Below are positions 3,001-58,812 of a stretch of DNA of 64,000 nt, in pieces (position 1 is the stretch's first letter; each line of letters opens with the position of its first letter). Where the stretch lies: contig QPGO01000075.1 of assembly GCA_008632985.1 (NCBI GenBank), forward strand, positions 250,517-314,516. The letters run 5' to 3'. The DNA is from Psammoneis japonica (lineage: Eukaryota). Under the pieces are notes generated by a model, which was not told the origin of the DNA, searched no databases, and saw only the letters and a list, made by a program, of their open reading frames with translations. The position numbers and the translations under genes are program-made.

Positions 3001-3970
3001 ACACAAAGCATGTGGGGCCGGGAAGCAGTCGTTCATGCAATCCTGTGGAAGACAAAGAGAGATCTGCTTTGCTGAATGAGCTCAAGGCACGCATGGCATC
3101 CTCTGACATGCACAAGTTGATCCAAATTGCAGAAACAAAAAGTGTGCAACACTCTGATGCAAATCTTGCACTGTGGCATCATCTCGTCATGACAACTGAT
3201 GCTGCTCCTGAAACAGAGCCATCGACATCCTCTGCTGGTTCTTGCTGCAAGAGCTGGTCCAACAAGTGCTCTCCTTTCAGTTCTGCAAGACTCCAAAAAA
3301 GGGCCAAGGCTGGAAATCAAGTGCTTCCGGTGTTGGCCATTTCTTTGTTGCTGGTGCTGTCCATGATGTTTTTGTTTGCATCCCTGACATCTGACATGTG
3401 ACAGCAAGAATCAGAATCCCCAAGCCATTGTTGCTGGTCTGATCCGTGATGCAACTGTGACAAGTGCCAATGTTTGGTCTGCCCTTTTGGAATTGAATTG
3501 CAGATGCGGCATTGGCATTCACACAATTGTTGGGGCTGGCGCCAACAAGGCAAGGGCAAGGTTGGAGGGGGCAAGGGACAAAGTGACTTGTGCACCTCTT
3601 GAAACAGCAGCAATGCAGAACCCATCCAGCATCTACAAAGGGAATGGGGCTTGCACCAACAGAATTGATCGGCTCCCTGCCTTGCAAGATTGCCAGTGTG
3701 AGTTGCTTTGCCCACAGTTCACTGCCGACAACAGAGCCAGTGTGATTGACGACAACAGAGACATCACAATTGTTGTGGATCTCGATTTGCTTGGACTGCC
3801 TCCCGTGCCTGACATTGTCGACAGCCCAATCTGTCTTTTGGATCCATGGCACCCCCGTGATGTCCTCTGTGCTGCCAGTGTCACTGAGTCATCCAAGGAA
3901 GAGCTTTGGCACTGTGACACCTGTGCCACTGTCCTTCTCCCTGACATGCACCTGCATCCATTGAAGTGCC
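1..3970. other. TpA- and CpG-depleted hypermutated domain I (runs off the left edge; fades out around 3970-4130)
   Basis: Only about a dozen TA dinucleotides seen in ~3.9 kb, and CG is rare. ORF translations are almost Tyr-free and rich in C/H/Q/W. TA and CG return to normal from about 4130. Confidence 0.9.
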
Positions 3971-7353: not shown

Positions 7354-8094
7354 ATGAATTCTCTCGCTTCATCTCCAACCAGGACCTCGACATCATTTCA
7401 TTCAATGGAAAAGACCGCTAATGAACCGATAGGTCAGAAAAGGTGCCGGAAAAGTACCGCCACCGACCTTTCAGGACGTCTGGAGCATCAGAAAGCTGCT
7501 CTTGCAGAGGCTGAGCGGCCTGTAGAAAAGCTGCGTCATGACATTATCAAGACAGAGGCAGAACTGAGAAAAGCCACATTACTCTCCCCTTCAGAAGCGC
7601 CGGTACAGCATGTGTTGGGGAGTCCGGATGTCGTGGTGAATGAGATCTTTGCGTTTCTCTCCATACCTGACCTCGGGCGTTCTGCCGCTGTCTGTCGCGA
7701 GTGGACAAGTTATGCTCGTAAGGAGCAACTCTGGGAAACTAATGCAATGAAACAGTGGCCGCATACTCCGTCCTCTGCCATATCTAACTTTTACAGCTAT
7801 TGCCGAAGTCAGGTTACACAAAAAACTTTCGAAGGGAACCTCGTTTATCCATATCACAACAAGCAGGTGAATAGCATGTATGCCAACGACGACTAATACA
7901 TTATCTACGTGTTACCGAGTATTATGGAACATACGGAGGATGGACAGCAGAGACCTGTATCTCGATGTGTAAAGTTGGACGAGTCTCTAGAAACTCAACA
8001 TGGTAAACAGGATCTCTTTTTGAGGAATCGATCTGTAACTGCCTCGATCGTTGTACACACAAGTCGGACGTTTTACAACCGCCGCTTGAGTTGA
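7354..8094 (+). pseudogene. F-box protein, copy 1 (in-frame TAA at 7894-7896, 3' part truncated)
   Basis: F-box motif VLGSPDVVVNEIFAFLSIPDLGRSAAVCREW..EQLW. Homology to the paralog at 24138 continues past the stop. Confidence 0.7.
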
Positions 8095-8480
8095 TTTGCA
8101 GCATGGATCTTTTTTCAAACTTCACCTCGCTGCATTTTTGTTGCACCAAGACGCTTGGTTTCCACAATTCTCTACTTCATAGGCTGGAACCGAATCCAAT
8201 ATATGTCGTTACACGAGCGAGTTAGCAAAGCTACAGTACAGATTTTCATTTCGATTCCCTATTATAGTCGTGTATTGATAGGCTTTCACGAGCGAGTTAG
8301 CAACGCTACAGTACAGATTTTCATTTCGATTCCCTATTATAGTCGTGTATTGATAGGCTTTCGTTTCCGTAGCGCGATTTGAGTAGTAGCCCAAAGGACA
8401 ATCCAAGCACATGTTGATGTCACTCGTCAAATCCCAGGAAGACCTCAAGAAACATTGCAAGTGTGAAGGGAATGAACAGG
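8095..8480 (-). pseudogene. Degenerate duplicate of the SWEET 3' end and its downstream region
   Basis: Aligns to ~26080-26410 (tttttcaaacttcacctcg, gagttagcaaagctacagta, catttcgattccct, gcccaaaggacaatccaagcacat, gtcaaatccca). Confidence 0.75.
8212..8361. repeat. 75-bp tandem duplication
   Basis: 8212-8286 and 8287-8361 are identical except aaag/aacg. Confidence 0.95.
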
Positions 8481-8612: not shown

Positions 8613-10079
8613 TTAGTTACAAAAATGATTGTTGTTGTTGTTGTTGATAAGTATCGGATGAATCAACCCTTTGTGCTCTTGGAAAGACCTAAAATACTTC
8701 AAAGGAGAGTGGTCGGTCAACGTGCCGAGGCAAGCCAAAAGCGGTCGTCTTTCTTGTAGAGATGCACTCTCCATCACAGTGGCAACAATATTTGATGATG
8801 CAACACTGCGTCGCAACCAAACAATCCTCCCAGCTGGAATGGTCAGAGGGGGGGAGCCATTAATGGGCTTCACCTGACACTTGGTGGCCCGCAACACAGC
8901 TTGCACCATTTCTTCCGGTGCTTCCCCAAAGCCGGTGAGGAGCTTTAATATACCCCAGTGTGACATGGTTTGTTGTTCTTGGTTAATAGCCGCAAGGCAT
9001 TTGCTCACGATGCGCCATTGGTGGAGACTGTCCGAAGTGAAACCATCTTGGCAATTTATGAAGGCAGTGATGTGAGGTTGCAAGTCCTGAACAACGTTAA
9101 CCGGATAAAATGGAGGCACAGGGCCAAAGACCACACATCGGACTGGTCGTTTTACCAGCTTCTTGCGGAGTATCATTATTGTCATAAGGATGGCAGCGGA
9201 ACCTCCCATGGAGTGCCCCGTGAGGATGAGTTCATATCCTTCATCTATGGACGAAAAGTCACCAAACGAAGATGATGTAGTGGCCTTTTTCCAAGTCTCT
9301 CGGGCCAAGTCGGTGATCCCACGGTGTGCCTGGCCACCATAGAATGGGACAGAATCCAGCTGCATGAATCTGAAATAATCTGCAATAGTATGACATCCAC
9401 GTACGACTAAAACAATTTGCCGGTGGTGGTGGTCCAGCACAACAGAATGGCTCATGTAGTCTATGTTCCTTTCATGATCCCAGTTACGTACAACAACATC
9501 TGATTCTTTGACGCCAGTTGCGTCACAGAAAACCTGTATCTGTAGTTGACATCGGCGACCCAGGCAGCATTGGAGTACACTGCCGTGCTGCTTGCTTTGA
9601 GCGGCCGATACGGCTTCCAGCCCCGCCACCATTTCACGCCCATAGATGGCACAAGAGTACTTTAGCATGCGAATAGCCTCCTCCCACGTTCCGGGTGTTT
9701 CATCCGTCAGCGAGGGTAGCTGTTCCAGCTTTGCTTCTGCTTCTGGTGAAAAGTGCAAACGCCTATGAATTCTCGCAAGAATCCGTAAGCTGAAGAGCAC
9801 GTTCCAGTGGAACAGACCGTCCTGCACTTCCTCGTAGCATCCAGAACGAACGGCATAGCTACGGATTCCGCGCCAAATTTCAGCGTTCTTCTCCAGCGCA
9901 ACCTCTTGTTGGAACTGATTCCGGAAGAATCGAAAGAAGAACAGGAGATTACATAGAGCGTGAACGATGTGATCGAGCAAACCAAGCCGGTACAGGAGGC
10001 TCTCGGTAGTTGTCAGGAGGGTTTTGCGGCAGAGCCACGTCGCCGGCAGAAGGATGATGAACAGTGCGAGAAGAGACAT
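8613..10079 (-). CDS. Class 3 lipase / diacylglycerol lipase-like protein
   Basis: 488-aa ORF with IVLVVRG, AHRG, LILTGHSMGG (GxSxG), FGPVPP and C-terminal LTDH; hydrophobic N-terminus. Confidence 0.88.
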   Translation of the reverse strand: MSLLALFIILLPATWLCRKTLLTTTESLLYRLGLLDHIVHALCNLLFFFRFFRNQFQQEVALEKNAEIWRGIRSYAVRSGCYEEVQDGLFHWNVLFSLRILARIHRRLHFSPEAEAKLEQLPSLTDETPGTWEEAIRMLKYSCAIYGREMVAGLEAVSAAQSKQHGSVLQCCLGRRCQLQIQVFCDATGVKESDVVVRNWDHERNIDYMSHSVVLDHHHRQIVLVVRGCHTIADYFRFMQLDSVPFYGGQAHRGITDLARETWKKATTSSSFGDFSSIDEGYELILTGHSMGGSAAILMTIMILRKKLVKRPVRCVVFGPVPPFYPVNVVQDLQPHITAFINCQDGFTSDSLHQWRIVSKCLAAINQEQQTMSHWGILKLLTGFGEAPEEMVQAVLRATKCQVKPINGSPPLTIPAGRIVWLRRSVASSNIVATVMESASLQERRPLLACLGTLTDHSPLKYFRSFQEHKGLIHPILINNNNNNHFCN

Positions 10080-11400: not shown

Positions 11401-11544
11401 ATGGTGCTTTCAGTGTTAGAGGTATTGGAAGGAGCTTTTCAGACGTTCCTTACTTGCAAATGGTGGTTTCAGAGATTTAGGTTGCAGAAGGAGGTTTCTA
11501 TGATGCTTTCCACCTTCAATGAAGATGCTACCACGAGATATGCA

Positions 11545-12790
11545 CATGTATGTACGATTTGAGTCACTGATTCTTGGCTTGATCTGCATGATGAAGGCGT
11601 GGAGTACAGTACTTATTATAACGCACATGACTCCAGCCTATGATAAGGCATGTCTAAATCAATTCCTCGAAATGGCTGGAGTTCAATTGCATTGGTGGAT
11701 TTTTTTAATTTCTGGAAGCCTGTGCGTCAGTGACCTGGTTCTCTCTTTTAAGCTGTAGTGGAGTAAAAAGTGCTATCAGTAGTTTTTCGAAGAGTTCCTG
11801 GATACGAGGTGCTGTGATGCTTTAGTTCGTCAAATTTTACCTTGCTGCATTTATCGAAGGTACGCCCGGTAGTAATAAAGACACCTGACATCCTCAATTC
11901 TTCACTTAGTCTAGGTTGAAACCGAACCCAGCAATTGCCTTTACATGAGTGAGTTAACAAAGCTACAGTGTGATCAAATGATTTCCATTTCGATTCCCTG
12001 CCAGTCGTGTGTTTGTAGAGCTTTTCCATCGCCATGACGCAATTTGAGTAGAACTTGTGCTGGCCCAAAGGACAATCAAAGAACATTTGGCTGACAAATG
12101 TTGATGTCATTCATGTCAAATCCCAAGACAGACCACAAGAAACAATTCATCAAAGTTGCAAGCGCCAAGGGAAGTGGAAGAATCATCCCAGCAACACTGC
12201 ACAAAGCTGATCGCATGCCCATGTGGCTGGCTTGCAAGGAAAGTTTAGAGAGTGGTCAGAGGTTTGTTCTGTGAAAGGTCAGCTTGTCTCTCTTTTCCTG
12301 TGGCTGTTGTTGCCTTGTTGCAAAAATGATTCCTGTTCTTTTTGTTCAAAGATGTTGGATGAAGGAGCACTGCTGTCTGCATGTCTGTTGTGGCTGCTCT
12401 CATTGGAAAGACCCAAATGCTTCAAAGGAGAGTGGTCAGTCAACATGCCAAGGCAAAGCAATGTCAGTCATCTTTCTTGTAGAGTTGCACTCTCCATTGC
12501 AGTGGCAACAATCTTTGACAATGCAACACTGCATTGCAACCCAAACAATCCTCCCAAAACACAGCTTGGGCACTGCACTGTTTCCACTGGCACTTCCCCA
12601 AAGCCAGTGAGGAGCTTGACCACACACCCCAGTGTGACATGGTTTGTTGTTCTTGATCAACAGCTGGAGGGCATTTGCTCATGACATGTTGTCAGCATGC
12701 ATTGTCCAAAGTGAAACCACATTGGCCATTTGTGAAGAGAAGATGGTGACAGGTTTCAAGTCTGGAGCAATGCCAGTTGGATGAAATGGA
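11545..12790. pseudogene. Mosaic duplicate: tail of ORF 25659-26081 + SWEET 3' end + lipase 3' end, increasingly hypermutated rightwards
   Basis: 11550-11700 aligns to 25935-26080; 11945-12180 to 26176-26413; 12190-12790 to ~8490-9130. Confidence 0.8.
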
Positions 12791-13499
12791 GGCACAGAGT
12801 CAAAAACCACACATCAGGCTTGCAATCTCACAAGCGCTTCTCACACATGTCAGAGGCCACAATGTGGTGGAGGTTTTTGCTCTCCTTCACAAGCTCTTTT
12901 ACATTCATTTGCCAGCCAAAGGCACAATTCCCAGCAACAGTGTTTTGCACAGTGCATTTGCATTTCATGTTTCCATTTTGGTCTTAATTGGCTTTTCTGG
13001 AAAATGACTGCTCCAAGCACATTTGCTTTTTTGCTGTGCTTTCCATTGGATTTGTTCAATTGAATTTGGTTTTGGCTTTGTCTCCCCCCCCCCCTCATGT
13101 GCCTGTGTCATTGGCACACATGTGGTGCTTCACCATGTGACATGCTGCACCTTGTTGCCCCAGCACACACCATGCACCCACATTGCCTCTTGCTTTCCCA
13201 GATTTGCACACCACCTTGCTTGCCCTGTGGTGTTTTTAGCTTTTTTTTTTCATGAGCAATTTTTTGCACATGCAACCGCATTGTCCTTGTTGTCCGAGAG
13301 ACAACATCATCCATGTCACTTTGGGAGAACTTGGTGGTGGAGCTGCAAATCTGGGCTTTGCACTGGGCAAAATGGGGAGGTGGAGGCTGGTCTGGCTGGG
13401 CTCCTTGCCTGCTCATAGATGGGTGGATGCAACAAACCACTGGTGTCACTTGAGGCCATGAAATTTAGCAGGGCACTTCAGAGCTGCCCATGAAAGAAG

Positions 13500-14050
13500 G
13501 TGACTCAGTGAGTGTGCCATGACATGTGGCATCAATGGATTGTCATTGCACGTGTTGTTCTGCTCACATTTTCATTTTGCCTGTCATGTTTTCAGCATGG
13601 ACATCTGGGACTGCAAGTGCAGAAAGCAGCCCTTCCATGCCAATGCTCTGCATGACACAAGTTCTTTGACAACAGTTGTTCATTTGGGAAATCATGTTGT
13701 GGATCTTTCAGCATCCAGCAGTTGGGTCTGAACAGGTGTGAGTGATGGATGTGCTGTGCCGGCAAAGTGTGTCTGTGCATGATTCACCATTGCAAATGAT
13801 GGCTGACCAATCTTGCCAATTGATGGAGAGAAAACTTTTCCACCAATTGACGTGGCATCAGCCAGCCATGCACAAAAGCAATGTGGTTGTTGAAGATGGC
13901 ACCTGGGCAAGTGCAAAGTCTCAGTTGCTTCAGGATGGACTCTCCAGAGAGTGTTGCTGCTCCAGATCAGAACTTGGCACAAAAGGCAAGTGGCGATTGA
14001 GAAGTTTCACATCACACATCCCCTTTTGGCACTGAGACCAAACCAGCACC
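13500..14050 (+). mobile_element. Possible decayed DDE transposase fragment
   Basis: GVSDGCAVPAK (~13735) then, frameshifted, PAMHKSNVVVEDG..AK: loosely the SDGCxxQYK...HxK...DG pattern of some eukaryotic DNA transposases. Heavily degraded. Confidence 0.3.
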
Positions 14051-17000
14051 CATTGTTCTTCTTGACCAGCTTGTGGGCAACTCTTTGTGCTGGAGGACAA
14101 CACATGTGAAACAACAGCTTTCAGTGCTGCAAGGTGACACCATCAGATTCCAGTTCATGTGAATCCAAAGCAACCTGAAGCTTTTGAGTCCTGGGGAGTT
14201 GGGCACATGCGTTGTCATCACTGAGACAGAGATTGCAAGCAAGCTCAGCCAAGTGACCTGCCATCACCAATTTCTTAGACCAAAGAGTCTTGCCAAGAAC
14301 TTTAGACTCAGAGTTGTTTTCCATTTGAGTTGAACATTGCCAAACTGTTTGTGAAAAATGTCAATGGCAGCAAACAAATTAAGAAGAGTGTGTCATTGGC
14401 ATTTTGGTTGGATTTGAGGAAACAGGAGTGGGCTGGAAGGGAAGGTGCACGTGCCTTTGTGCAGGCACAAATTCATCAACAGCTCACCACCAGCAAAGGC
14501 CATGGCAAAAATGCCATGGCAGAAGAAAAAGAAGGGTGCATCTGCCGCTGATGAGCTGCTCCCAAGTCCAAGGGTGGTGGTGGCATTGGAGCAGATGGGA
14601 GCAAGTGGAGGGCTCCAGTCTCTCAAGAAAGAAGTGGAGGAGGTGGCTTGGAAAGTGCTGTTTCCAAAAGCAAGTTCCTCACTGAGGCAGACACATGTCA
14701 AGCAGTGGAAAGGTTTCATGGTCAATGCATGAGAACACAGCTGGCAAATTCAGCAAGCAAGGCTGGGTGGAAAAGTGGAAAGACTGGGCAAAAAGAAGTG
14801 CGTTCTAAATGCAATCAACACAAAAAGGAACACCTGCACAACTGGGCCAAAAGAGGTTGAGAATGATGCTGCTGACACATCCAAAGTCATGTTGACAGAA
14901 GAACAATCTCAGGAAATGCTTGGGCAGAATCACAGTGGTGGGGTCCCAGCAAAAGAAAAAGGAGAAAGAACACAAGGAAAAAAGGCAAGAAGAAGAAGAG
15001 GGCTGAGCCCATTGAAGTGCCATTTGTGCCAACTTGGGGGACAGGACTGTCAAAAACCATTGTGGGTGAGAAATGGAAAAAAGTGTGGGTGTGGTTGTGT
15101 GACAATGCACTGAAATTTTCCAAGAGCACTGTGGTGTGCAGAAAGATGGTGGAGTCAGGACACAGTGCAAGGATGTGGAGCTGACTGCAGCAAGTGACAA
15201 GGCTCTGGGGCTGTCAACATGTTGGAAAACTGCTGCTGGAGCATTTGGAAATGCAAGGCAAGGAAGGAACAGAAGATTCAACAGGGAGATGCAGACAACG
15301 ACAAGGGAGAGAATGAGAAACCACCACAGCACAACAATCCACACAAGCCTGGCAAAACGTTGGGAATTGCAGGGAGATGCAGGAATGGAGCAATTGAAGA
15401 AGCTGCATGATGAGGTGAAGAAAGACAGGGCAAGGGATGCAGGGGTGCAGTTCAACACAGGGCACATCAACAACAAGAAGGGACAAAGCAGCTGGAAGGG
15501 CAAAAGTGTCACAACCAAGATAAAAATGGCCCAGAAGGCAGCAAAAAGCAAGCAACACTTGAGCTGTCTAGAAAGACAACAAGGACAATGCAGAAGACAA
15601 AAAAGACAAAACTGTGAAGAAGAAAACCTGAGTGATGATGATGAGGGAGACACAAACAAAACTGCAATCTGGCACAGGAAGCACCTCTTTGCTGCCATGC
15701 ATTTGCTTGCAGCAACAGCTGACAGCAAAAGCAGCAAATCAGCAAATCATTGACACTCATTTGAAGCACGCATTGCATCAGTGTCTTAAAACACAAAAAA
15801 TTAAATGAGATGTTTTGAATGCCATGATTTTGGTTCACAGATTTTGCAGGGGTGGAGGGTGAGCAACCTTGCAGGGATGAACCATGGTTGTTTCACAGCA
15901 ACTCAAGTTTTCCTCACCATGTGGAGGGGGGCAGGAGAACTCCCACAGCGTGGAAACTTTTGTCTGTCACATTCAACAAGGGTTCAACATGTGCACAACC
16001 AGCCAACTGTCATGGCACAATCTTTCAACAATGTGATGGTTGGATGATTGCTGCTCTGAGACAGGCCCAGGCAGACTCTGTTGCCTCAATGTGTGCTCAG
16101 ATGCAGCACATCACAGCTGTCATGCGGATGACAGCAGAGCCTTCCACAGAGTGTGCATTCTTGGTCTGGGACAGAAAGTCACCGCTGGACAAAGATCATG
16201 TGGTGACTTTCTTCTGGGTCTCTTGAGCCAAGCTGGCAAGCTGTTCTTTTGTCCCAAACATGCACATCCACACAATTTTGGAATTTTGGCATTTTTTTCT
16301 GGGCAAACCTGCTGGCTGCCACAAACACAACATCAGCTGTGGATGGCAAAAGCAAGAAGAGTGGCAGCTGTTTCTTGGTGTCTGGTCACCACAGCATCAC
16401 AGGGGGACTTTCCTTGTTGTCCACATCAGGTCACACAAGTTGGAAATGAAATGGAAGAGCAACTTGAGAACTTGTCTTTTGCAGTGAATGCCATCCCTCA
16501 TCCTGAAGAGCCACTGGACAACTCTTGTTTGATGATGACAAATTTGCAGTGGATGCCCCCCCCCCCCCCCCCCCAGAGGCATCAGATGACTTTCAGATGA
16601 CAAAAAAGTCAGCAATTTTGCTGCTGGTTGTCTCAAGAAAAAAGCAACGTGTCCACAACACCCATGAGGAATGAACAGCAGCATTGGCAGTTGGCAGCTT
16701 TTTTTCATGTGGATCCAGCAGAGCACAGGGACAACAACTGCATCAAGTGGTGGCTCAGCTGTCAGCTGTTTCTTGTGATGGCAGCATGACAAAGACAACT
16801 TTGGGCAAGTCTGATGAGCACAACATGTGTGTGTTTCCTTTTTTCAGGGGTTTCATGCAACCTGTGAGCAAGCACACCTGGTGTTGCCAGAAGGCAACAC
16901 TCTCCCACATTTGCTGCCTTCTTCTTCATTGGAGCAAGGCTCTTTGCATTTTGGCCACTCCTTGACACACAAAGGTTGAGAAAGACAGCCTCAAGCAGAC

Positions 17001-17439
17001 TTGATGTGCTGCATGAAAATCTTCATTGCAAGTCAGCCTGACAAAGTCACCCCCAAGCACAGCTGTTCAAGGCCAAACATTTTTGACATTTGCTGCAATC
17101 AGCAGTCAGTGCCCCAATTGAAGAGAAGCACCTGCCATTCCAAGTGACTCAAAGTTCATTGCACCAGATGAATCATGACTTTTAATGACACAGCAACAGG
17201 GCTGCTGCTTTTTGACTGCTCTGCTGAAACAAAGCAACTCTTTTGCACCCGACCCTCCTGTGATGAAGGTGTGCAGCACACACAACCACATGACAGGCAA
17301 ATGAGAGTCGGCAACAAGGAGCCAGCAGAAGCAAAACAGTGGAGGCTCTTGTTGTTGATGGAGCACCACAAATGGGCCCACATCTGCATGTGTCGACAAA
17401 GTGCACTTTTGCTGTTTGGCCATCAGAGGAGACCAGTGG

Positions 17440-17630
17440 TTGACAACACACAAAATGCTTGCAAGGGCCTCAATGCACGAGACATGGGGGAAGCAGCTGT
17501 GGCAACCTGACAGACATGTGTGCTGTTGTCAAGTGTTTGACAAAGCACAATGCTTGCAAGGGCTTCAATGCATGAGACATGGGAAGCAGCTGTGGTGGTG
17601 ACCTGGCAGACATGTGTGCAGTTGTCAATG
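17440..17630. repeat. Two imperfect ~95-bp tandem copies
   Basis: aatgcttgcaagggc[c/t]tcaatgca[c/t]gagacatggg..aagcagctgtgg..acctg[a/g]cagacatgtgtgc[t/a]gttgtcaa occurs twice. Confidence 0.8.
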
Positions 17631-20600
17631 AATGGACTCAGCTGCAATTGGCCATTTTTGAAGGATGATTTTCTCAAGATCCAAAATCTGTGATGTTTTG
17701 CAATGTTTTGAGGGGCATCCATGACTGAAGCCTGCACTGTCCCATCAAAACTTTGCAGCACCCACACCCAGCAGCAGCATCTCAGATTGGTCCGCACAAT
17801 GACAATGCCTGTGCGTGCAGCACCTGTGACCTCTTCTTGTCACACAAGGAGAAAAAGCAATGTGTTTGCAGCTGGGGTCCAAAGTGCCATGAGATCCAAG
17901 AGAGCATTTGTGCTTGAGCCAAAGTGGGCAAAGATGAGCCTTGTTCTGGGCAATTTGTGCATCTGCAACTTGGAGGAGGCAAGCTGAAGAAAGCAGAGAA
18001 ATGGAAAGAGAAGCAGCACTGGTGAACCTTGGAATGTCTTGTGATGCGCAATTGACAACTTCTTGGTTCAGATTCTTGTTGCAAGTTGTCATTGGACCAT
18101 CAGTCAACTGTGCTCTTTTGATGGTGGCAAGAAACCATCTGCACCCCTGCCCTCAGTGCTGACAATGACAGCTCTCAAGGAGGTGGGTCAACTGTTGGCA
18201 CTTTGTGAAGAAGAGTTCTGATGAGGCATGTTTTTGCTGTCCTGGTGTGCCAATGAAGTCATTGTTGACAAAGATGAGGAAGTTGCCATGCAGCATGTGC
18301 AACCAAACACTGGACAAGCACAAGGCATTTGCAAAGCTGAAGGGTGACCAAGAGAGATTCAGCCAACTTGCTCTTGGCATTTTTTTTCAATGATGGAAAA
18401 ACATTGCATGATGACAAAGAAAACAAGACTTCAAAAGCACAATGCAGTCAGAAACAATTAAAGAGAAAGCTCAAGATGCATGCCAGGAGATGTCCCTGCT
18501 GAAACAAAGCAACTGGATGAGCACACACAGGAAGTGCAAAAAGCTGAAGCATCCAATGCCAGTGCAGCTGAGCCTTCATTTGATGGCTGCAATGTTGAAG
18601 ACTTTGCTGCAGATTTTCTCAATTCAAATTCTGCCACTTGTTGTCAACTTGCACCACCCAAATGGTTCATGCTGCTGACAATTCAACAGCTTGCAAGGGA
18701 CACATTTGGGCTTCACAGTTTCAAGGAGATGAAACATTGCATCTCCTGCTTCTTTGTTGATGCACCACTTCTTGTTTCTGAAATCCATTTTGATGGAAAT
18801 GGAAGAAAACTAAAATGTGATGCAACCAATCCAATGAAATTTGAACAGCTGCTGATTGTGGAGCACGTCATGCAGTGCCGCCCAGTGTGAAAGATTGCCA
18901 GAGCTGCTTTTGGCATGTCACATTGATGTCCAGTGAAGAGACATGTTAAAAATGGGCACCACAGTTCTTTTGATTCTCCTGATGCTGCACGATCGCTTTG
19001 ATGGAAGTGTTGGACAGGTTTGCTGAAAGGCTGCTTGACTTGGCAGCTTTTCTTTTTGACAGAAAAGACACTCCTGCAGAAACAAGGTGCAAAGACAATG
19101 CTGCAGGTTCCACACAAGCCAGCTTAAAAAAGCACTGTTTGTCAAGTGCAGTTTGTGAACTTTGTCACAGCATGCGCACTCTCACATGAGCACAATTGGG
19201 TGCACAGAGCTTGAGTGGATGAGGACAAATTGGCAGCATTGACTGGTGAGTGCAGAGAAGAGACACCAGTGCAATGGTGAAAGACCATGCTGTGCATGAC
19301 CTGCACTGCAGTGTGCCAAAGCACATTGGACAGCACTTGATGATTTGGAAGTTGGAGATTGGCTCAGTGCTTTGGTTGAATCAATTGATCCAGTGAAGTT
19401 AGATGGCAAAAAGGAAAATGGCACAATGAACCACATTTGGGTTGGAGCTGTTGAACATTCTCAAGAGTCTGGAAACAGCCTCATCAACCACACAAGCACA
19501 CACAGCCAAGATGTTGAATGCTCTGAAGAGTTTGACAGCAATGACTCTTGCAGCACTGGTCATGAGTTCAACTGGACAGAGACATGAGTGTTGGCTGGGG
19601 TGAAAAAGAATTCTTGCAACAACATCCTCTGCAGAATTCAGCAACCCTGACAGCAATGGTGAGGAGTTTCAAAGTGTGAGCACGTTCTTCTTGAGTGCAA
19701 ACAATGGCTCAACAAAAGAACTGAGAGAGTTGAAAAAGTAAAAAAGCTCAAAGATGCCAAAGTTGACAAGGTTGTGCTGCTTGTCTGTGAAGACCAGGCC
19801 TTGCAAAAAGCTCAAAATGAAAAGGTGCTGGCTTGCTCACTGCAAAATGATCCACATGCAGAGTCATTTCTTCAGCAACTTGAGCTGTTTGAGAGGCTCC
19901 CCAAGCTGCATGACTTGAAGGCCAACCCCGCCAGCAAAGCATGGCAAGTGCCTGCTTTGAAATGACAAAAGAGCATTGCTGGGATCTTCTCTGCTGGATT
20001 TGAAGCAAACTGACTCAGCCACACTGCAAAATGTGCAACCCAGAGTCACCTCTGGAAGTCCACTTGTGCCTGCACAAAATCCTGCCAAACAGCTTGGCGA
20101 CAAAGGTTTTGAGAAGGCAGAGCACCATTTTCTGCATTTCAATTGAGCACATGTGCCTCAAGTCTTGCAGCTGTGAACAGCCAGACAATGCAACACAAGC
20201 TTGAACTTTGACTTGGAGACAAGAAGGACATTTGCAGGGTGTGGCACCCAAGGAAGTGACTTTTTCTCAGTTCATTGCTGTGAATGGTCTCAGTGATGAC
20301 ATCTGATGCAATGATTTTACCAGTGCTGTTCCATGCATGTGGGAATGGGGCAGTCAGAAATGAACCTTGGCTTGCCACTCTGGTGGTCATGGGCTGACAG
20401 CAGTCTTCTTCCTCTCATCTGTTGGAACTGAGAATTGAGCAATGACTGAAAACAGTTGTCCACATTTTTTGGAGCTGGTTCATCTGTGGTGGTCACTTTC
20501 TGTTTCTTGCTGCTGTGCTTTGCTTTCTCTTGCACCACCATTGGTTCCGTCAAGAGTGTCACTTTGTCAATTGGAGATGGGGGCATTGTTTTTCAAAAGT

Positions 20601-20639
20601 GTCTCTGTTGGCATGATGCTGCATTTGGCAGAACATGAA

Positions 20640-22420
20640 AAGTGCTGCAAGAGGAGCATGTGCAAACACACTGCTTGTCCATTGTGGCATCAAGAGTGGC
20701 ATGAAAAAGGGTGTGACAAAAATTGTTTTGCATTGGTGTTGAAGCCCAAGCACAGCATGTGTGACCTTCTTGTGTCTTTTTTTGCTCCGCTGATTGCAGA
20801 TTTGATGACACTGCTTCTGTCTTCATGGATGGAATGCAACAAAGTTTGAACAGCCACACCAAACTGCCCTTGGCAAGCATCTTTTGCAGATGCAAAAGTT
20901 CATTGCAGCACTGGGCAAACTGCCACCTTGCTGCAGCAAAAAACCTCATTCAAGGTCATGTTCATTGCCTTTTTGGTGGAATTTCTTAACCAAACTTGGA
21001 AGCATTGAATCAAGCTCCACACAATCACAACAACAACTGTGGTCCCAACCCGTGGTTTTGTTTGCCAGCATCACAACCTTGTGAACCATCCATTTTCCAA
21101 TTTGCAGTGAGATTTTCTCCAGCTCTGGGGCTTTTTTTGTTGACATTGATCTTCTCACAGCCAACTCCAATTCCAACTGATCACCAGCAACAGGGCAGCT
21201 GAGTTGAACAGACATGACCCCAACACTGCAACACATGAGTTTGCACACATGGAATGGGCATGGCTTTGAAATCAAGCCAAGCACACAAAGGGGTGGCTCC
21301 TTCCCAACAAATTGCTCATTGTTGGATGCACTGCACAAAGGGGCCAAAAATTTCTTGCTCAATGGCTCACCTTTTTAAAAAGGCTCAATGACCCTTCAAA
21401 CTGCCATGACATCCAGCAGTCTGTGACAGCATCAGAGAATGACTCAACAGGGTTGAAGCCAACGACACTTCCCCAAGACAAAATGTGACAGTCTCCTGCA
21501 TTTCCTTCCAGTGGATTCAGTCAAACAAGATCATCATTTTTGTCAAGGACTGGGCAGTGCATGAACAGCACCACAGACTTGTCAAAGTTCTCAGTGCACA
21601 GTGCAGCCCACTGTGGGTTTGCAGCCTGTTGAAATGCTTTCTTGATTGCTTTTGCTGCAGTGTGTCTCCACCAGACCAATCTGTGCCAGCCAGCCTTGAA
21701 AGAATGCTCTTGAAGATTCTTTGAAACCCCATGTTTTTCATTTGCATTGGCTGCAGTCTGAGCCAAGAAGATTTGTCATTGCCATCCAGTGTTTGAAGTC
21801 ATGAGCACTGATGGGACAACTGGCAGGCAACAAGTCCTCCTTTCACACACTTTCCATGCACCAAACTGTGTGTCAACCTCAGAACAAACAACTTTGCCCC
21901 CCTGGAATGACAGCATCACCTTCTTTGTCCATCACAACACCATCAGTGCAACCATCTGCCTTCATTTTGACAAGTTGGTGCTCAGCCTCATGCGCACCAT
22001 GAGTTCACTCTGGACTCCATTGCACCAAGCACAGGTGCCACACTGGCAATTGATTGACACCTGGCAAAGTGTTGCACAGATCCCTTGCTCTTTGCAATGA
22101 TTGGTGTTGGTCAACCTCAGCAATGATGTTGCTGGCTTTGCCTTTCTGCGTGCACTTGTCCACCCATGCCTCTGCTTTTTAATCTTGTTGTTTTGTGCAG
22201 CCCTTGCTGCGCTCTTTGCTGGATGCCTTGCCCCATCAAAAACACAAAAGGAGACACCCCAGCTGAGACAAGCTTGTGGTGCACACAGACTTGACAGCTC
22301 CCAACAAACTCTTTGGCAGCTGTGGTGGCTGTGACAGGAGATGCTGCATTTGTGCAGGCACACCGATGTGTTGATCCCAGCTCTTTTTGGACTGGCCTCA
22401 ACAAGTGATGCAAACTGCAC
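20640..22420 (-). pseudogene. Decayed XPG/FEN1/EXO1-family nuclease followed by a SWIM-like Zn finger (probably TE-borne)
   Basis: In order on the minus strand, across frameshifts: GINTSVCLHK (22349-22378), FCVFDGARHPAK (22214-22249), GAHEAEHQLVKM..DG..DGVV..GDAVI.GG (~22000-21890), LLGSDC (21753-21770, H3TH LLGxDY), PFSCHS*CHNGQAVCLHML (20655-20713). Confidence 0.65.
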
Positions 22421-24137
22421 TTTGTTGACATTGCCAAGGGCTTTGGCCCATGGGTCACCAATTTCTGTTGGAGGGCATTTGTCCCACAATTTTGGGAAGC
22501 TGCTCCTGGTGTTGGTCTTGCTGAACTCCCTGCACCCAGTCTTCAGCCAGAAAGGAGCAACTGACCGGATCTTCTCAGATGCTTTGGACATTGTTGAGGT
22601 CATTTTTTCTGTGCTGTTTGACCCCTCATCTTCTGGCTGACAGGCTCCACAATCATCACATCAATGTCCCAGGCACCGGCAAGAGAGGCTCATGTTGTGG
22701 CTTGTTGTTTCCCTGCCTTTTGTTGGTGACAGGAGTCACTCTGTCCCGTGTCATGCATCCAAGCTTTTGGTTTCTCAAGAAACTTGCAAATGCTGTCTCA
22801 GAGACTCCAGTGCTGTCTGCACTTGGTCTCTTCAATTGCTTTGGCTGGTGCGCCAAACAATGGTCGAGGAAGTGTCACCTGCCTCACAATTGTTGAACCC
22901 TTTCATCCAGCCACACAGCTCACGAGCTTTGCTGGATGTGCTTGGAACAATTCCAGCAGTGCAAAGTCAAGAACAAGCAACCCTTGAGGCATTTCAAGGC
23001 ATCTCCTTCATTTCAGATTGGGCGCGAGTCATGTTTCATGCAGTGTTCTTGAGTGGTTTGGACGAAATGGCAAATGGCCCATGTTGCTCCGGCCGCTGAT
23101 GCCAGCAACCATGAGGATGGTGCAGCACACATGTGAAAGCCCATTGACTGGTGGCACCTTGCTCCAGAGCATGAAGGGCCCCACTGGTGCTGCAAAGAGC
23201 CCACAATCACAGGCTGTCCATGACCAATTGCAGCATTCCAAAATGTGTTTGTTCTGTTGATCATGTGCAACAGCTTTGAGCTTTTCAAAGTCCAACCAGC
23301 TGGCAAGCCATGATGTGGAATCACTGTTTTCTCTCTGCGTGCAGTGGCAGAATTCTTTTCAATGTCCCCAACACATCCAGAGCACAGCCACATCATTTTC
23401 TTGGTCTTCAACCCTCGCAGATTTTCTGCCAGAGAGAGAGCTCAAGTCTCATGACACATCTCTTGAACATCAACACCAGCAGGTGGATGGCCAAAGCCAA
23501 AGCAATTCATTCCAGCCTCTTCAAAAGCAGCCTCAGCCAACACAATGAAAGAGGTGGCAATGAGGTCAACAAGCAACGAGTCTTCCCCTGGAGATCCCAT
23601 GTGTGGAACGAGAGCAAGATCCATTGAGGGTGACGTTGACTGGGCCTTCTGCAGTGCTGCCTTTTTTACCAGAAGATGCTCCCAGCCACCTTGCTCGTGC
23701 AACATTTGCAACTTCACATGATTGATGCTTGTAAAACATGTGGATGCATGACCAAGCTGTTGCAAAGCAGAGTCTGCACCCCGGTGCTTCCTGGCCCTTT
23801 TCTGCTGCGAGCAGCACCAAGCAAAAGCAACAAACTTCTCTCTAGAAAAGAGGGAAAGAGGGGGATGGAGAGAGGGCATGAAGCACAAGTGGAGTGCTTT
23901 AGAAAAGGAACAGGTCAAGATTTCAAGACTTGAGAATGTCCATGAATTCATCATGTGCCGAAGCCATGCCAACGAAAATGATTGCTGTGTTGAAATAAAA
24001 TGACGCATCCTGCCGGGCGAAAGACAGGTGGTGCGATGCTGACCGGCGCACGCAGCATCATGCCGCCCATGATGGTGTCACAGTTTATCGCGTTGCTGCA
24101 TCATCATCGTCCCTGAACAACAGCACGGCATCATGTC

Positions 24138-24945
24138 ATGGCAGAGCGTTGCTCAATCGAAAAGGCCGCTGATGGATCTGCAGGTCAGAAGAGGTGCAGG
24201 AAAAATGCCACCGCTGACCTTTCAGAACGTCTGCAGCATCAGAAAGCTGCTCTTGCAGAGGCTGAGCGGTGCGTCAAAAAGCTGCGTCATGACATTGTCA
24301 AGACAGAGGCAGAGCTGAGAAAAGCCACATTGCTCTCCCCTTCAGAAGCGCCGGCACAGCATGTGTTGGGGAGTCCGGATGTCGTGGTGAATGAGATCTT
24401 TGCGTTTCTCTCCACACCTGACCTCGGGCGTTCTGCTGCTGTCTGTCGCGAGTGGACAAGTTGTGCTCGTAAGGAGCAACTCTGGGAAACTAATGCAATG
24501 AAAAAGTGGCCGCATGCTCCGTCCTCTGCCATGTCCAACTTTTGCAGCTGTTGCCAAAGTCAGGTCACACAAAAAACTTTCGAAGGGGACCTCACTCACC
24601 CACATTGCAACAAGCAGGTGAACAGCAAGTTTGCCAACGACGAGCACTACATTCTCTACGAGCTGCCGCATGTTATGGAAGACACAGAGGATGGACAACA
24701 GAGACATGCACCTCGATGTGCAAAGTTGGATGAGTCCATTGAAGTTCTACCTGGTGATCAGCATCAGTTTGAAGAGTCGATCTGCAACTGCCTCAATCGT
24801 TGTACACACCAGTCGGCCTTTTTGCAACTGCCGCTTGAATTGATTTGCAGCTCCTTTCCAGCATGTGAACTTCTCCAGAGATTCAGGGAACTCAAGATGT
24901 CCATTCTTCGGAAGTCGGACGGCAAAATGGCACTGATCTCGCGCA
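24138..24945 (+). pseudogene. F-box protein, copy 2, TpA-hypermutated and interrupted near 24946
   Basis: Near-identical to 7430-8100 but with Y->C/H, I->V, V->A, I->T, T->A changes at TA sites. Confidence 0.8.
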
Positions 24946-25658
24946 CGTGTGCGCGGTTATTAGACTGTGTAGGCGTGTGTGCGTGTGTGAGGTGTAAGTA
25001 GAATATACGTAGAATTACTACTGATGAGTTGACAGGCGGTGGATTTTCCGCCGGTACACAATCTACGCGGTCTACATGGAACATAAATTTATGTCTGTCT
25101 CTGAGGATTTTACATATCATTAACATTTCTTTGGTCTTTAAAATATACATACCCAAATTCAAAAAAGTGAGGAACACCCCGAAACACATTTTAGAATCTG
25201 AATAAAAAAAATTTCTATTTAACGGTCCGAACAGAGTCGCCCCGAAGCGCTTCTCAAAATATCCTCATATTGTATATAGTAAAACATCTACTATTACCAA
25301 AACAGAGTCACTATCGGATAAATAGATCCCGTGTTCTTCGCGCGCAAACAACACGATAACGCACAACAACACCATGGCGAGAAACGCGAACGCCGTCCCC
25401 TCATCTACAAGTTGGGAATACGAGATACTATTGAAGTGGTTGGACAATATGTATGCGCTGTATTCATGGGTCAAGTTGGGTTTCTTCTCGTTGCTTGTTG
25501 TTGCGTCATTTTACTACGTTTTGACCCACGCCGTGTTCTTCGCTTTGTTGCTTCTGCTCGCGCGCCACCAACAGCTCTTCCTGCAGGGTATGGCTAGTTG
25601 CTCATCACATCGAACCCAAACGTGCGCGACCAACTAGCCCTACCCCGGCTAACTCATA

Positions 25659-26081
25659 ATGGACCCTGGCAGCCAACGATATGAAACGGATGTGATGGAC
25701 GACATGCATCCTGAAGATGTTATCCGTCAGGGATACTACCAATACCTGAGAGATATACCCAACTTTTTAGACAGGAGGCACGAAACATCCATTGGAGAGA
25801 AGTTGCCACTTGGATTACGAGCCAAAGCTGCTTTGCAGTTTCCCTTTGACCGCGAATTCGTGGGAGGACGTCCAGTCGGCGAGCTAGGAGTTGATAGAGC
25901 GTTTACTTGGCCTCATCGAGATGATCTCATACAGGTACGCTTCGAGTCACTGATTCTTGGTTTTGATCTGCATGCTGAAGACACGGAGGATTTTTACAGT
26001 TATAGGATGCACATGACTCCAGCCTATGATAAGACGTGTCTAAATCAATTCCTCGAAATGGCTGGTGTTGAATGGCATTGA
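25659..26081 (+). CDS. Hypothetical ORF, possibly the detached C-terminal part of the F-box gene
   Basis: 140-aa ORF with normal composition. Its tail is duplicated at 11550-11700, and the sequence just after it follows F-box copy 1 at ~8100. Confidence 0.4.
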   Translation: MDPGSQRYETDVMDDMHPEDVIRQGYYQYLRDIPNFLDRRHETSIGEKLPLGLRAKAALQFPFDREFVGGRPVGELGVDRAFTWPHRDDLIQVRFESLILGFDLHAEDTEDFYSYRMHMTPAYDKTCLNQFLEMAGVEWH

Positions 26082-26235
26082 TGGATCGTTTTTCAAACTT
26101 CACCTCGATATTTATTGCACCAAGACACTTGATTCCTCAATTCTCTATATACTGTAGGTTGCACTGAATGCAATACATGGGTGAGTTAGCAAAGCTACAG
26201 TATAATCAAATAATGATTTCCATTTCGATTCCCTA

Positions 26236-36171: not shown

Positions 36172-37190
36172 ATGGGCAAGCAAAAGCAGCTACATCCAGC
36201 TAAGGCTTCGGCCCATGCCGCCATGTATTTACTGTTTGCTGCACTTGCAGAAGAAATAACATGCAAGTGGTTTACAGCAAAAGAAATCAAGCAGTTGCTC
36301 GTTCATGGAGGTGCCTCCGAGAAACTTCGAGAGGAAGACATCAGCGATGCTTTTGGTGGTGGCAAGTGCAAGCACTGCTTCGAGTCACGTAGATGGGGAA
36401 AAGACCATGATGCACATTTCAGAGGGGCAATGCACAACCAGAACAAATCCACTCCAGCCAACGAGCGGCATGTTGGGTGTTCCACTGAAGATGTCGCTTC
36501 TGTCATTCCGAGAACACATTTTAAGGATGAGCAATGTCGTGACTCGCTCGTCAGTGTTGAAACTTATTTGAGTGAAAGAGAAGATTTAGAATCTGGGAAA
36601 AGGAAAGCTGTTGTTGGAAAAGGAACACCAGCGCCTGCGACCAAGAAGAACGTGCGGGTGGTTTCTCCTGCCGAGTTTGACTCTGGCAGCAACAAGCAGT
36701 GCCGAGGCTGGTCTGGTGACAAGCACAATGCGTTGCTGCAGCAAAGTCTCAGAGCACACTTTGAGAATAAAATGGACATGAAAAATCCGTCCTTTCCTGA
36801 TGAGCTGCCTTTGCCAGAAGCCTGCATGGCATGCCAAGTGCGCCAAGGAGGGCAAGTGTCTGTGCCTTGCCAAGGTGAGCCAAGACGCAAATGAAAAACA
36901 ATTTGAAAATGACCATCAGAATGTTGGCGGTCACGACAAGCCCCATCAACTGCATTGTCAGAGAGGAGTGGCTGCCTCCGCATTTTTGAGAATGGAAAAC
37001 ACAGAGAAGAGCAACTGCTCTGGTTCAAAAAACAATGAACAGCCTGCCAAGGCTTCATTGAATGAGTTGCGACGAGCGGGAAGTCGCAAAAAACAGGCAC
37101 TGGGTGTGCCGTTGTAATTGACATTGTTGACACACATGCCATTGTTGACGCACCACCTGTGTGCTTTGACTCTGTGTCCCTCATTCTGTG
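36172..37190 (+). pseudogene. Degraded ORF of a putative mobile element (unknown product)
   Basis: 240-aa ORF with a frameshifted continuation (36800-37117); Tyr nearly absent after the first 20 codons. Confidence 0.4.
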
Positions 37191-38770
37191 AAGGAACCTC
37201 GCTTTCTCTTGTTGCTGGCCGATGCTGCCACAGCCGTCACATGCTTCCGCGTCGACAGAGACGCCCCATTGGCTTTTTGCTGTGATTGCATTTTCCAAAT
37301 TACGTCTCGGCATCTCATGTTGCCATGCTTGGCAAGAATGATGCCATGCACCTCGGTCTGCAGAGTGTCTCTTTCAGAATCAGTTTCGTCGGATGGAATG
37401 CAGTTTTCAAAGAGTTGTTTTAACTCAGCGCTCCGTTCAACGACGGCAAAGACTTGCTGGAAAAATGAATCTTTGAAATGAATGGCAACGTGCACTGTCA
37501 AATTCAAAGCATGCAAGGCCTCCATGTGACAAATGAATTGAAAGCAAGCAGGACCGACTCAAACAAGTGAATTCTTTTGAATCTCTTTTACGTCAACAAT
37601 GTCAGTTTCAACGCCCTTGCGGTCCAAGTCAGAGCGCAGACGATTGAATGAAACAAACTTTTCAATTGCAACTTTGCGCCTTGCTGCCTTTTGCTTGGCA
37701 AGTGAAAAGAGAGTCCAACCGGATGCAAAGTACACTGCACCCTTGGACCCACAAAGCACGTCGGCAACGTCCTCCTCGTTGACTCGTTCAATGAGAATTG
37801 ACGTCCCGTCTTCATTCTTGCCAAGAGACTTCACTGCAGCAGTCCAGTTTGATTCAATGAATTTGTCAAGTTGCCGGAACCAAATGCACAACACATTGTC
37901 ATCGGCATTGGTCGCGACACGGTTTTCTCGCAAGATGTCCACACAGTCCTTGGCAAATGTGAGACGAGTGTCCACCACTTTGTTGACCTGGAGCAGAATT
38001 CTCTTGTGAAGAGCAGTTCATGATGCATCTGTCATTGCGTCTGCAAACAAGTCTGTGAGTTCCTTGATCCGTCTCTGGATGCGGCCGAGCATTGGACGAA
38101 GCTCTTCAGCTTTGCCAAGTGCAGAATCAAAAACATCACGGCAGGAAATGAATGCTCCTGATTTTGTTTCCTTGTGAAAATCACAGTGACCACTGCAATG
38201 TTCCTTGACATTCAGGAAAGCAGCTTTGCAAACATTGCTGCAGTTAATTTTCTTCCAGGCATTTCGGAGCAAGGTGGTTCTATCAACATCACACACAATC
38301 CGTGACACGACGCCAAGGTCATCTTTGTACTCCTTCCAAAGACGAGATGCTTGGCTCCTCTTTTCAAGCTCAAGCCCATCAAGAAACTTGTCACATTCTT
38401 TGTCCTTGTTGAGATGGGGCATGTGCGCATCAACAGACCAGAGTCCAGCTTGAACGCGGGCGGCGAAAAAGGCGCACAAAGCCACCTTGATAGAATCGCT
38501 CGATCGAGGTAGAATTTCTTCTGCAGCGTCCATCTCAGCACCACTGGCTTCCTCTCCCAAATTCAATTGTGATGCATCAGTCACTGAGTTGTCACAGTCC
38601 CTGTGTCCTCAATTTCGTCCTGGTCTGGCCTTAAGAGTGACTCGTCACGACCGTCGTCAGGAATGTCTTTGCTGCTGATGGCAGATTGCACCCCGCTTGG
38701 AAATTCCAGGTTGACGGTGTCAGCATCAGCAACCCCACCAAACCAACAGTCATTGCTTGCAGATGACATA
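37181..38770 (-). pseudogene. Degraded ORF of a putative mobile element, convergent with ORF 36172
   Basis: Protein-like pieces 38584-38018, 37978-37559 and 37525-37181 broken by stops/frameshifts (e.g. GAVYFASGWTLFSL). Confidence 0.45.
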
Positions 38771-48650: not shown

Positions 48651-49683
48651 TATGATTTCAGTGGAAGAACACGAAGAGCTCATAAGTTTGGAGCGTAAGC
48701 GGTATGCGGAAATGCACAATCACTTGACGATGCGGGTGCACCAGCTTCATGCCGCTGTGGAGGAAGAAAAGAGGCGCAGCCAGAGCATATTGGAGAGTGA
48801 ACGCTCTCGAATGGAACTTGAATTTGAGATGCAACGACAAGACATAACAAGAAATTGGGAAGAAGAGCGAGAGAGTCTCTTGGCAGAAACTACGAGATTA
48901 GAAACAGAGTTGTCAAAGGAGCAAGCGAAACACAGAACATTCAAGGCGAGGCAGCAAAATACCAAGAAAAGAAAGCTAGCTCCACAACAGGAGCAAAATG
49001 CGCAAGAGGATACCGTGCCCAAAGTACCTACTGTAGCCTTGAATGCTCACGGGAAACTCAACAAGCACGATCTCAAGTGGAAGTCAAGTTTTGAACAATT
49101 GCAAGCGTTTCATGCAAAGCACGGACACAGCGACGTCCCCATGTACTTTCCAAAGGACAAACGAGACTCGGATGAATGGAGGCTATCAAGATGGGTCTGC
49201 GCCCAAAGAACTCAACACCGTAAGCTACGTGAAGGTAAGACGTGTTATATTACGCCGGAGCGCATTCAACTACTGAACGGCCTCGATTTCAAGTGGCAAA
49301 TCACCACAACCTCGACTGGAAAGCCTATGTCGGCAACTCGAGTGCCATGGAACAAACGAATGGAGCAATTGAAGGCCTATCGTATGAAGTACGGGAATGT
49401 TCATGTGCCACAGAGTTACAGCGAGAATGGATTGGGCGATTTTGTGATGAGGATGAGACGCGAATACACACTCGGGACGCTGCGGCAAGAGAGAATCGAC
49501 GAGCTCAACGCAATGAACTTTCGATGGAGAAAGGTGTACAATAACATCAATAAGGATGTTCCGTCTGAGTATAAGCAGCATCAACTAAAACAACAGCAGC
49601 AGCAGCAACAACAACAGAAACCAAGTGATGATGCTGTCGAATCGGTGGCCGAGAGCAATAAAGATGATTCTTCGTCCCAGTAG
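48651..49683 (+). CDS. Coiled-coil protein with two helicase-associated (HA) domains
   Basis: WKSSFEQLQAFHAKHGHSDVP..LSRWVCAQR..ITPERIQLLNGLDFKW and WNKRMEQLKAYRMKYGNVHVP..ERIDELNAMNFRW; poly-Q tail. First ATG at 48651. Confidence 0.88.
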
Positions 49684-49782
49684 AGTAAGTACTTGTAGGT
49701 GTCGCTAGCTAGCTACTAGAGAGGGACTGTCGAGGTCAAAAGATAGCCATACAGTCCGCTACTAGTAGACTAAGTTGTTTAT

Positions 49783-58742: not shown

Positions 58743-58812
58743 CTACTAGAGAGGGACTGTCGAGGTCAAAAGATAGCCATACAGTCCGCTACTAGCAGAC
58801 TAAGTTGTTTAT

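Follow-up and report, generated by a model that had tools for sequence, protein, structure and literature searches.

Loss of TpA from one copy of an F-box gene pair at the fringe of a depleted domain, probably by region-bound hypermutation

Why should two copies of one gene differ so often where one of them carries the dinucleotide TpA? A pair of open reading frames (ORFs), copy 1 and copy 2, raises this question in the stretch of contig QPGO01000075.1 analysed here (64,000 nucleotides; 'the window'). Both are, on the evidence of their sequence, F-box genes: copy 2 matches PF12937 with 35.5 bits (cut-off 24.3) and PF00646 with 29.2 bits (cut-off 20.5), and its F-box-like domain (E = 8.8e-9) passes the Pfam cut-off. 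A first-pass annotation of the window had counted 15 differences in part of the pair and had read them as TpA conversion running well ahead of CpG decay in copy 2. Our analysis suggests that copy 2 was probably hit by a region-bound, strand-symmetric, DNA-level hypermutation from TpA to TpG or CpA, like the process reported from Bigelowiella natans. It would be collateral damage at the fringe of a hypermutated domain, with copy 1 lying outside any such domain.

Copy 1 (7530–7836) aligns with copy 2 (24281–24587) over 307 bases without a gap and with 15 differences. At 11 of these, copy 1 reads TA and copy 2 reads TG or CA; two are CG sites of copy 1 that read TG or CA in copy 2 (7686 and 7805); and the remaining two lie at 7563 (A in copy 1, G in copy 2) and 7753 (C and A, respectively). 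The alignment reproduced the earlier division into eleven, two and two, down to the same eleven words, and the tally by dinucleotide context that had been proposed as a check, once run, gave 11/13 TA steps changed against 2/16 CG steps (Fisher p = 1.5e-4). The TA count falls from 13 in copy 1 to 2 in copy 2, the CG count only from 16 to 14. Because TA steps cover 26 of the 307 positions yet hold 11 of the 15 differences (binomial p = 1.6e-9), chance is excluded, and the direction is one-sided (11:0, p = 0.001). The accompanying protein shift from SYARK..FYSYCR to SCARK..FCSCCQ, also noted before, is present in the translated ORFs of both copies.

The same imbalance extends over the full duplicated segment (7398–8102 against 24149–24851; 703 aligned bases, 92 mismatches), where 26 sites are TA in copy 1 and TG or CA in copy 2, with none the other way round (p = 3e-8). 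Among the 32 TA steps of copy 1 at which the purine/pyrimidine pattern is kept, 13 read CA, 13 read TG and 6 still read TA in copy 2, so that both strands were affected equally. Of 35 CG steps in copy 1, by comparison, 26 are unchanged and 9 converted, with 2 changes in reverse. TpA conversion is therefore ahead of CpG decay over the whole segment (26/32 vs. 9/35), as had been claimed from the shorter stretch. The converted sites are distributed evenly over copy 2, without a gradient.

Which copy changed? A word-indexed protein search found no close relatives of the F-box gene; an exhaustive search gave 13 distant homologues, the best six of which were aligned as outgroups (33–37% identity for the nearest four, 28–31% for the other two). 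These outgroups favour copy 1 at six clear and three weak TA codons, and copy 2 at one. The Y of LVYPH is found in copy 1 and in 4/4 outgroups, and is H in copy 2 (TAT to CAC); where copy 1 has the second Y of FYSYC, all six outgroups carry F or Y and copy 2 carries C; and at the variable position of FLS(I/T)PDLG, four of the six outgroups have V, against I in copy 1 and T in copy 2. In place of two GTA (V) codons of copy 1, copy 2 has GCA at positions where the outgroups have I/L or an aromatic residue, and an ATA (I) codon corresponds to ATG at a position where they have V, L or I. The outgroup tyrosine in EYYL is represented by CAC in copy 2 and by TAA in copy 1.

A third F-box copy, present in contigs of two sequencing runs (X1 and X2), departs from copy 1 and matches copy 2 at 7563, 7753 and 7785. 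At the remaining ten TA sites and at both CG sites, no difference from copy 1 is listed. Its agreement with copy 1 is firm at 7546, 7581, 7604, 7712 and 7765 (X1 contigs, depth 55–59, adjacent differences listed). A three-way alignment of the neighbouring segment (8100–8480, 11860–12270 and 26075–26420), polarised by parsimony, placed 8 changes from TA to TG or CA and 0 in reverse on the branch at the domain edge, compared with 0 and 1 on the sister branch in normal DNA. Composition gives the same picture: the ratio of observed to expected TA (o/e) is 0.70 in copy 1, against 0.60 in normal DNA of the window, and 0.15 in copy 2, with the adjoining domain at 0.04.

A few observations weigh against this direction. 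At the codon PY/PH, the outgroups have H, as does copy 2; at the next codon, the sole outgroup with a residue has C, again like copy 2; and the outgroups are distant, at the identities given above. Outside the five firm sites, the third copy rests on one X2 contig, 19 of whose 39 differences, all up to 7837, are listed. At 7785 (tctaa to tccaa) the third copy has C like copy 2, and here the difference more plausibly reflects TA gained in copy 1, or else a parallel change. The claim that all 11 TA sites were lost in copy 2 thus stands for up to 10 of the 11 by the third copy, but not for 7785. The first-pass annotation had pointed out that third copies or orthologues with TG or CA at these sites would reverse its reading; the third copy and the outgroups mostly agree with copy 1. 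Four lines of evidence (outgroups, third copy, three-way alignment and the decayed lipase copy described below), together with composition, concur in pointing to TA as the ancestral state and TG/CA as derived, so that copy 2 lost TpA rather than copy 1 having gained it, as first proposed.

We examined composition in 1-kb sub-windows, calculated dinucleotide o/e for each part and placed borders from lists of TA and CG sites. Sub-windows 1–4000, 12001–24000 and 55001–58000 have TpA and CpG o/e of 0.0–0.1 and TG/CA o/e of 1.8–2.0. Pooled depleted DNA (18,352 bases) has o/e values of 0.03 for TA, 0.11 for CG, 1.89 for CA and 1.79 for TG, against 0.60, 0.99, 1.13 and 1.15 in pooled normal DNA (39,753 bases), and the GC content is equal (47.3% vs. 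47.8%). Around the cores, fringes of 0.1–0.9 kb have lost TpA only, and one of these takes in the N-terminal part of copy 2 (0.8 kb). On the right side of domain 2, CpG density recovers at about 23960–24004, and TpA remains rare up to 24958. Depletion runs continuously from the core through 23961–24137 into copy 2; since that intervening piece, 5' of the duplicated segment, is depleted yet unduplicated, the depletion reaches beyond the duplicate.

The remaining edges follow a similar pattern (Table 1). TpA loss and CpG loss end at 3974 and about 3650, at 54220 and about 54815, and at 11965 and about 12040–12212, respectively, while at the right edge of domain 3 both end together at 58250–58300. 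At every edge TpA loss thus extends as far as CpG loss or farther, and no region depleted of CpG only was found within the 64-kb window. The right border of domain 3 coincides with the start of the second LRR unit, the domain being the spacer of a tandem duplication. Long overlapping ORFs occupy both strands of the region at 36250–38750; no Pfam family was recognised there, and a search with one of the ORFs gave no homologue. Within the core of domain 2, the + strand of 14001–16000 has a purine skew (GC skew 0.17, AT skew 0.27), with pseudo-ORFs rich in lysine and glutamate. A purine/pyrimidine-coded self-comparison showed no likeness among the three depleted domains and no pairs resembling long terminal repeats, only the pairs already known.

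Table 1. Coordinates of the genes, repeats and depleted domains in the window.
Feature	Position	Strand	Remarks
Domain 1 core	1..3650		TpA o/e 0.05, CpG o/e 0.12; continues beyond the window; TA-only fringe 3651–3973
F-box copy 1, N-terminal part	7354..8102	+	TA-normal, o/e 0.70; pseudogene
Class-3 lipase gene, intact	8613..10079	-	Pfam Lipase_3; TA- and CG-normal reference
Domain 2 left fringe	11965..12249		TA drops after 11964, CG after ~12040–12212
Domain 2 core	12250..23960		TpA o/e 0.04, CpG o/e 0.09, TG/CA o/e 1.85; single-copy depth
Decayed lipase copy	12415..12840	-	Inside core; further piece 16149–16239
Domain 2 right fringe, start	23961..24137		CpG density normal from ~24004, TpA still depleted
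F-box copy 2, N-terminal part	24138..24935	+	7 TA, o/e 0.15; 33 CG, o/e 0.63
High-copy 720-bp insert	24936..25655		53 TA, o/e 0.95; interrupts copy 2 frame
F-box copy 2, C-terminal part	25656..26081	+	TA o/e 0.69
TpA-only depleted region	36250..38750		2.5 kb; 18 TA, o/e 0.11; CpG o/e 0.68
Control tandem duplicate, LRR gene units	49177..53992 vs. 58296..63018		~92–97% identical, ordinary spectrum
Domain 3 TA-only fringe	54220..54815		0 TA, CG o/e 0.76; between tandem LRR units
Domain 3 core	54816..58250		TA o/e 0.03, CG o/e 0.13; between tandem LRR units

One very sharp border falls within copy 2 itself. The reading frame and the conserved cysteines of this copy are intact, but other conserved residues (Y, I and V) have gone, and after codon 266 (between ..KMAL and IMDPG..) it is interrupted by a 720-bp insert, equivalent to 240 codons. 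The insert ends AT..TC rather than GT..AG and is a high-copy repeat, because its summed contig depth is 2400–5300 against 55–65 (40–90 times single-copy). The contig of the third copy connects 24935 straight to 25656, without the insert, and the C-terminal part of copy 2 ends CLNQFLEMAGVEWH, in agreement with the C-termini of the outgroup proteins. TpA depletion stops within about 20 bases of the insert's left junction, inside what was formerly a single reading frame. Either the insert fixed the border of the process or it inserted at an existing border.

Two lesions make copy 1 a pseudogene: a TAA in frame at 7894–7896, at a codon for which the outgroups carry Y, and a shift of frame near 8017. 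The C-terminal exon is missing from this copy; pieces of it and of the segment that follows are found at 11504–11706, 11878–12179 and 8103–8472. Just 3' of copy 1 there is a direct tandem repeat of 79 bases (8209–8287 and 8284–8362, 97% identical). Two other ORFs were considered as further copies and rejected: the ORF at 10561–11400 is not a copy of this gene, and neither is the F-box-like_2 ORF at 39279–40295.

A second gene pair bears on the direction, rate and character of the process in the core. The decayed lipase copy differs from the intact gene, whose best protein match has 49% identity, by conversion of TA to TG or CA at 24/30 sites and of CG to TG or CA at 28/31; where the intact lipase and a homologue (P0001) share a conserved PFY, the decayed copy has PFH, which again points to TA as the original state. 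(The pieces of this copy lie 3.3 kb apart in the core, so that something was inserted or a rearrangement took place.) Double flips between CA and TG make up 11 of 109 steps in the lipase pair, compared with 2 of 621 in the control pair, and divergence by transitions outside pyrimidine–purine (YR) steps is 11.8%, roughly equal to the share of flips. The flips thus match ordinary transitions with each new TA or CG quickly converted, from which we infer a long-running process rather than a single burst.

At the fringe, copy 2 has taken 1.67 hits per TA step and 0.30 per CG step. Transitions outside YR steps amount to 6.7% in the F-box pair, both lineages together, which is about 10% diverged elsewhere. 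Averaged over the age of the pair, the TA rate exceeds the per-site background by a factor of about 25. The earlier suggestion that TpA conversion is unlikely to be a slow by-product therefore holds in part: compositional drift is refuted by the border inside one frame, while a rate of about 25-fold fits either bursts or a steady process.

No flanking preference of conversion is evident in the pairs (RTAY 19/23, mixed 30/41, YTAR 11/14). Pol-eta-like errors in WA motifs were considered and rejected, AA steps being not above background. Among the 49 TpA steps that survive in the cores (1–3650, 12250–23960 and 54816–58250), 36 are YTAR (18 of them TTAA) and none is RTAY, where normal DNA has 18% YTAR and 30% RTAY. 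The surviving YTAR steps may be fresh arrivals by C-to-T change at pyrimidine-C-A sites.

Known systems offer one close counterpart. Our literature search found no report of joint TpA and CpG loss and, for TpA hypermutation, only the preprint of Mettrop et al. on B. natans (bioRxiv 10.64898/2026.01.13.699255). In mutation-accumulation lines of this alga, two silent, single-copy regions of integrated viral DNA received 231 of the 302 nuclear mutations, and 230 of these 231 were A>G or T>C changes, every one at a TpA. The rate there was about 1000 times baseline, in some lines only, and 124 clusters of windows poor in TpA and rich in CpA+TpG occur in the B. natans genome. An adenine deaminase of the ADAT2 type is proposed by the authors, who cite amphioxus and trypanosome ADAT2 as acting on both bases (bioRxiv 10.64898/2026.01.13.699255). 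The likeness covers the change itself (A:T to G:C at TpA, giving TpG and CpA on both strands), its restriction to kb-scale single-copy regions with the remaining genome ordinary, the occurrence of TpA-poor, CpA+TpG-rich clusters, and the lack of annotation for many affected ORFs.

We infer that the TpA part probably represents the same process as the TpA-only hypermutation of B. natans. On this explanation, A:T would be changed to G:C at TpA, by transitions only and at YpR steps; cores would lose nearly all TpA and CpG and the surrounding fringes TpA only; and new TA or CG steps arising in a core would be pushed on to the other product, leaving the double flips between CA and TG. The chemical step could be adenine deamination at T-A within silenced chromatin, for which an ADAT2/TadA-like enzyme is the foremost candidate; by analogy with B. 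natans, we consider this step quite possible, though not the probable one. The loss of CpG from the cores would most simply be ordinary 5-methylcytosine deamination in a methylated core. Less likely still than the deaminase step is that one chromatin-guided system erases both self-complementary YpR steps by targeting the adenine of TpA and the cytosine of CpG; an ADAT2-like deaminase would then serve for both bases, its reach would be longer for TpA than for CpG, and a repeat insertion would halt it.

There are also differences from B. natans, some of which tell against the equation of the two processes. TpA o/e in the domains here is 0.03–0.05, compared with a cluster cut-off of ≤0.43 and a value of 0.45 in the nucleocytoplasmic large DNA virus (NCLDV) region of B. 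natans, so that the loss here is nearly complete. Host gene copies (F-box and lipase) are hit here, while viral origin, silence and a de novo rate are reported for B. natans only. Genes of B. natans are intron-rich; the window, whose genes are intron-poor with long uninterrupted ORFs, probably comes from another lineage. It is not part of the B. natans reference, its proteins being absent from the protein collection searched, and most of the nearest protein clusters are from diatoms, a weak pointer to a diatom-like alga. The differences that tell against the equation are the following. B. natans is almost without GC to AT changes, and CpG receives 0 mentions in the text of the preprint, whereas CpG o/e in the cores of the window is 0.09–0.13; the core CpG loss is thus either a second, overlapping process or the sign of one different, broader process. 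The fringe of copy 2 is itself nearly free of a GC to AT excess (CG 9 vs. 2). The averaged excess of about 25-fold is far under the 1000-fold of B. natans. Finally, the depleted regions contain no Pfam family among ORFs of at least 200 amino acids or among the 120 longest of 179 ORFs of at least 70 amino acids, and no viral or transposon protein was recognised among those 120; foreign DNA as the target is unproven, and the copies clearly affected are those of host F-box and lipase genes.

The alternative that survives best is passive decay of two symmetric chromatin marks, 5-methylcytosine at CpG and a putative mark on T or A at TpA, each lost through deamination or mispairing; neither a dedicated mutator nor a defence would be involved. 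The two target dinucleotides are palindromic, fit for maintenance marks, and both depletions are nested with sharp domain borders. The TA excess of about 25-fold is of the order generally quoted for methyl-CpG decay, the flips between CA and TG point to steady action, and CpG is touched by five of the six differences between the window and the reads inside 12.2–24.9 kb. Against it, we know of no base mark at TpA in these lineages, and the bursts in a subset of B. natans lines fit a switched activity better. Evidence from the window does not separate passive marks from an active mutator, but overall we regard passive decay as unlikely.

Could copy 1 instead have gained TpA, from CpA or TpG by C-to-T changes after duplication, with copy 2 ancestral? 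Such a history would resemble repeat-induced point mutation (RIP). Two copies alone leave the direction open, the PY/PH codon and site 7785 look like TA gain in copy 1, and diatoms have RID-related DNMT4 genes of unknown function (PMC9998398). At most sites, however, the outgroups and the third copy agree with copy 1, whose TA content is at the window norm while that of copy 2 is five-fold lower; GC hardly differs between depleted and normal DNA, whereas RIP enriches AT; and other duplicates in the window are spared. We tested this last point with the tandem LRR units (49177–53985 vs. 58296–63008), which differ symmetrically in a 4283-base piece (22:15 for TA and 21:24 for CG). With both this 4.8-kb tandem pair and the high-copy insert spared, duplication is not what triggers the process. 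RIP as it acts in Neurospora and other fungi is similarly transition-only, strand-symmetric and region-bound, and it ruins sequence and leaks into adjoining genes. Yet RIP makes TpA from CpA and raises AT, and here TpA is destroyed and GC unchanged; RIP is triggered by duplication, and here the 4.8-kb duplicate, the high-copy insert and copy 1 are all spared; and a cytosine deaminase or methyltransferase is unable to give A:T to G:C changes. A RIP-like origin is highly improbable.

An artefact, in which TA and CG are really present but were miscalled in sequencing or assembly, for instance at modified bases, is just as hard to credit. Base modifications do give systematic miscalls on some long-read platforms, and the platform of the run is unrecorded; this applies to X1, which is also possibly the source of the window assembly, a point that counts against the reality of the depletion. 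An independent word-based assembly of X1, whose contigs reach 315 kb, nevertheless reproduces 12410–24181 with 0–3 differences per 1–3 kb at an even depth of 55–68. The paralogues show ordinary divergence, indels and double flips between CA and TG that miscalling would not produce, and borders fall at an insertion junction. In a depth analysis covering 7000–26500, word depth was 58–115 across 12.2–24.6 kb, with one bin at 346, compared with 55–65 in the flanking genes; the depleted target is single-copy and not a repeat. Differences between the window and the X1 contig inside 12.2–24.9 kb were seen at 14801, 15299, 19305, 22567, 24670 and 14320, all but one of which create or destroy CpG, as if CpG were still polymorphic or mutating.

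Selection or compositional drift, such as UpA avoidance in expressed genes or codon usage, has next to no chance of being right: TpA is mildly low throughout the window (o/e 0.60), but o/e values of 0.03–0.15, sharply bounded on the kb scale in DNA where no genes are recognisable, the loss of conserved Y, I and V residues from copy 2 and the normal C-terminal part of the same gene all speak against it, and the border inside one reading frame refutes it.

Two further systems share features with the depleted domains. Diatoms methylate CpG in transposons (PMC9998398), and decay of methylated CpG in silenced transposons resembles the cores in converting CpG to TpG and CpA, in a CpG o/e of about 0.1 and in the differences between reads and assembly at CpG. 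It leaves the TpA loss unexplained, however, and CpG is largely kept in copy 2 (9/35 converted). The bias of very-short-patch repair in E. coli depletes CTAG, with a net change of TpA to CpA or TpG via T:G mismatches. That bias is bacterial, genome-wide and confined to one tetranucleotide, unlike the conversion seen here, which reached all flanks at the frequencies given above.

A TpA-only process changing A:T to G:C was first reported in 2026, in one chlorarachniophyte and by mutation accumulation (bioRxiv 10.64898/2026.01.13.699255). Our finding is probably a new instance of this recently described hypermutation in a different algal lineage. The window would represent its long-term footprint, far more complete and damaging host genes beside the target, and would add three features to the description: CpG loss nested inside TpA loss, injury to copies of host genes, and a border that falls where a repeat was inserted. 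The nesting shows as TA-only fringes and one TA-only region, never the reverse; the border may be razor sharp, at a repeat-insertion junction within a single reading frame; and duplication is neither needed nor sufficient for TpA loss. Together, the nesting, the sharp border and the independence from duplication offer a handle on how the process is targeted, by chromatin domain or by sequence homology. Joint TpA and CpG o/e would also provide a simple genomic marker for the process in other genomes. If a single system does erase both dinucleotides, TpA hypermutation would not be a chlorarachniophyte oddity but a widespread genome-defence mutator of algae in the stramenopile–alveolate–rhizarian (SAR) group, one that reshapes adjacent host genes.

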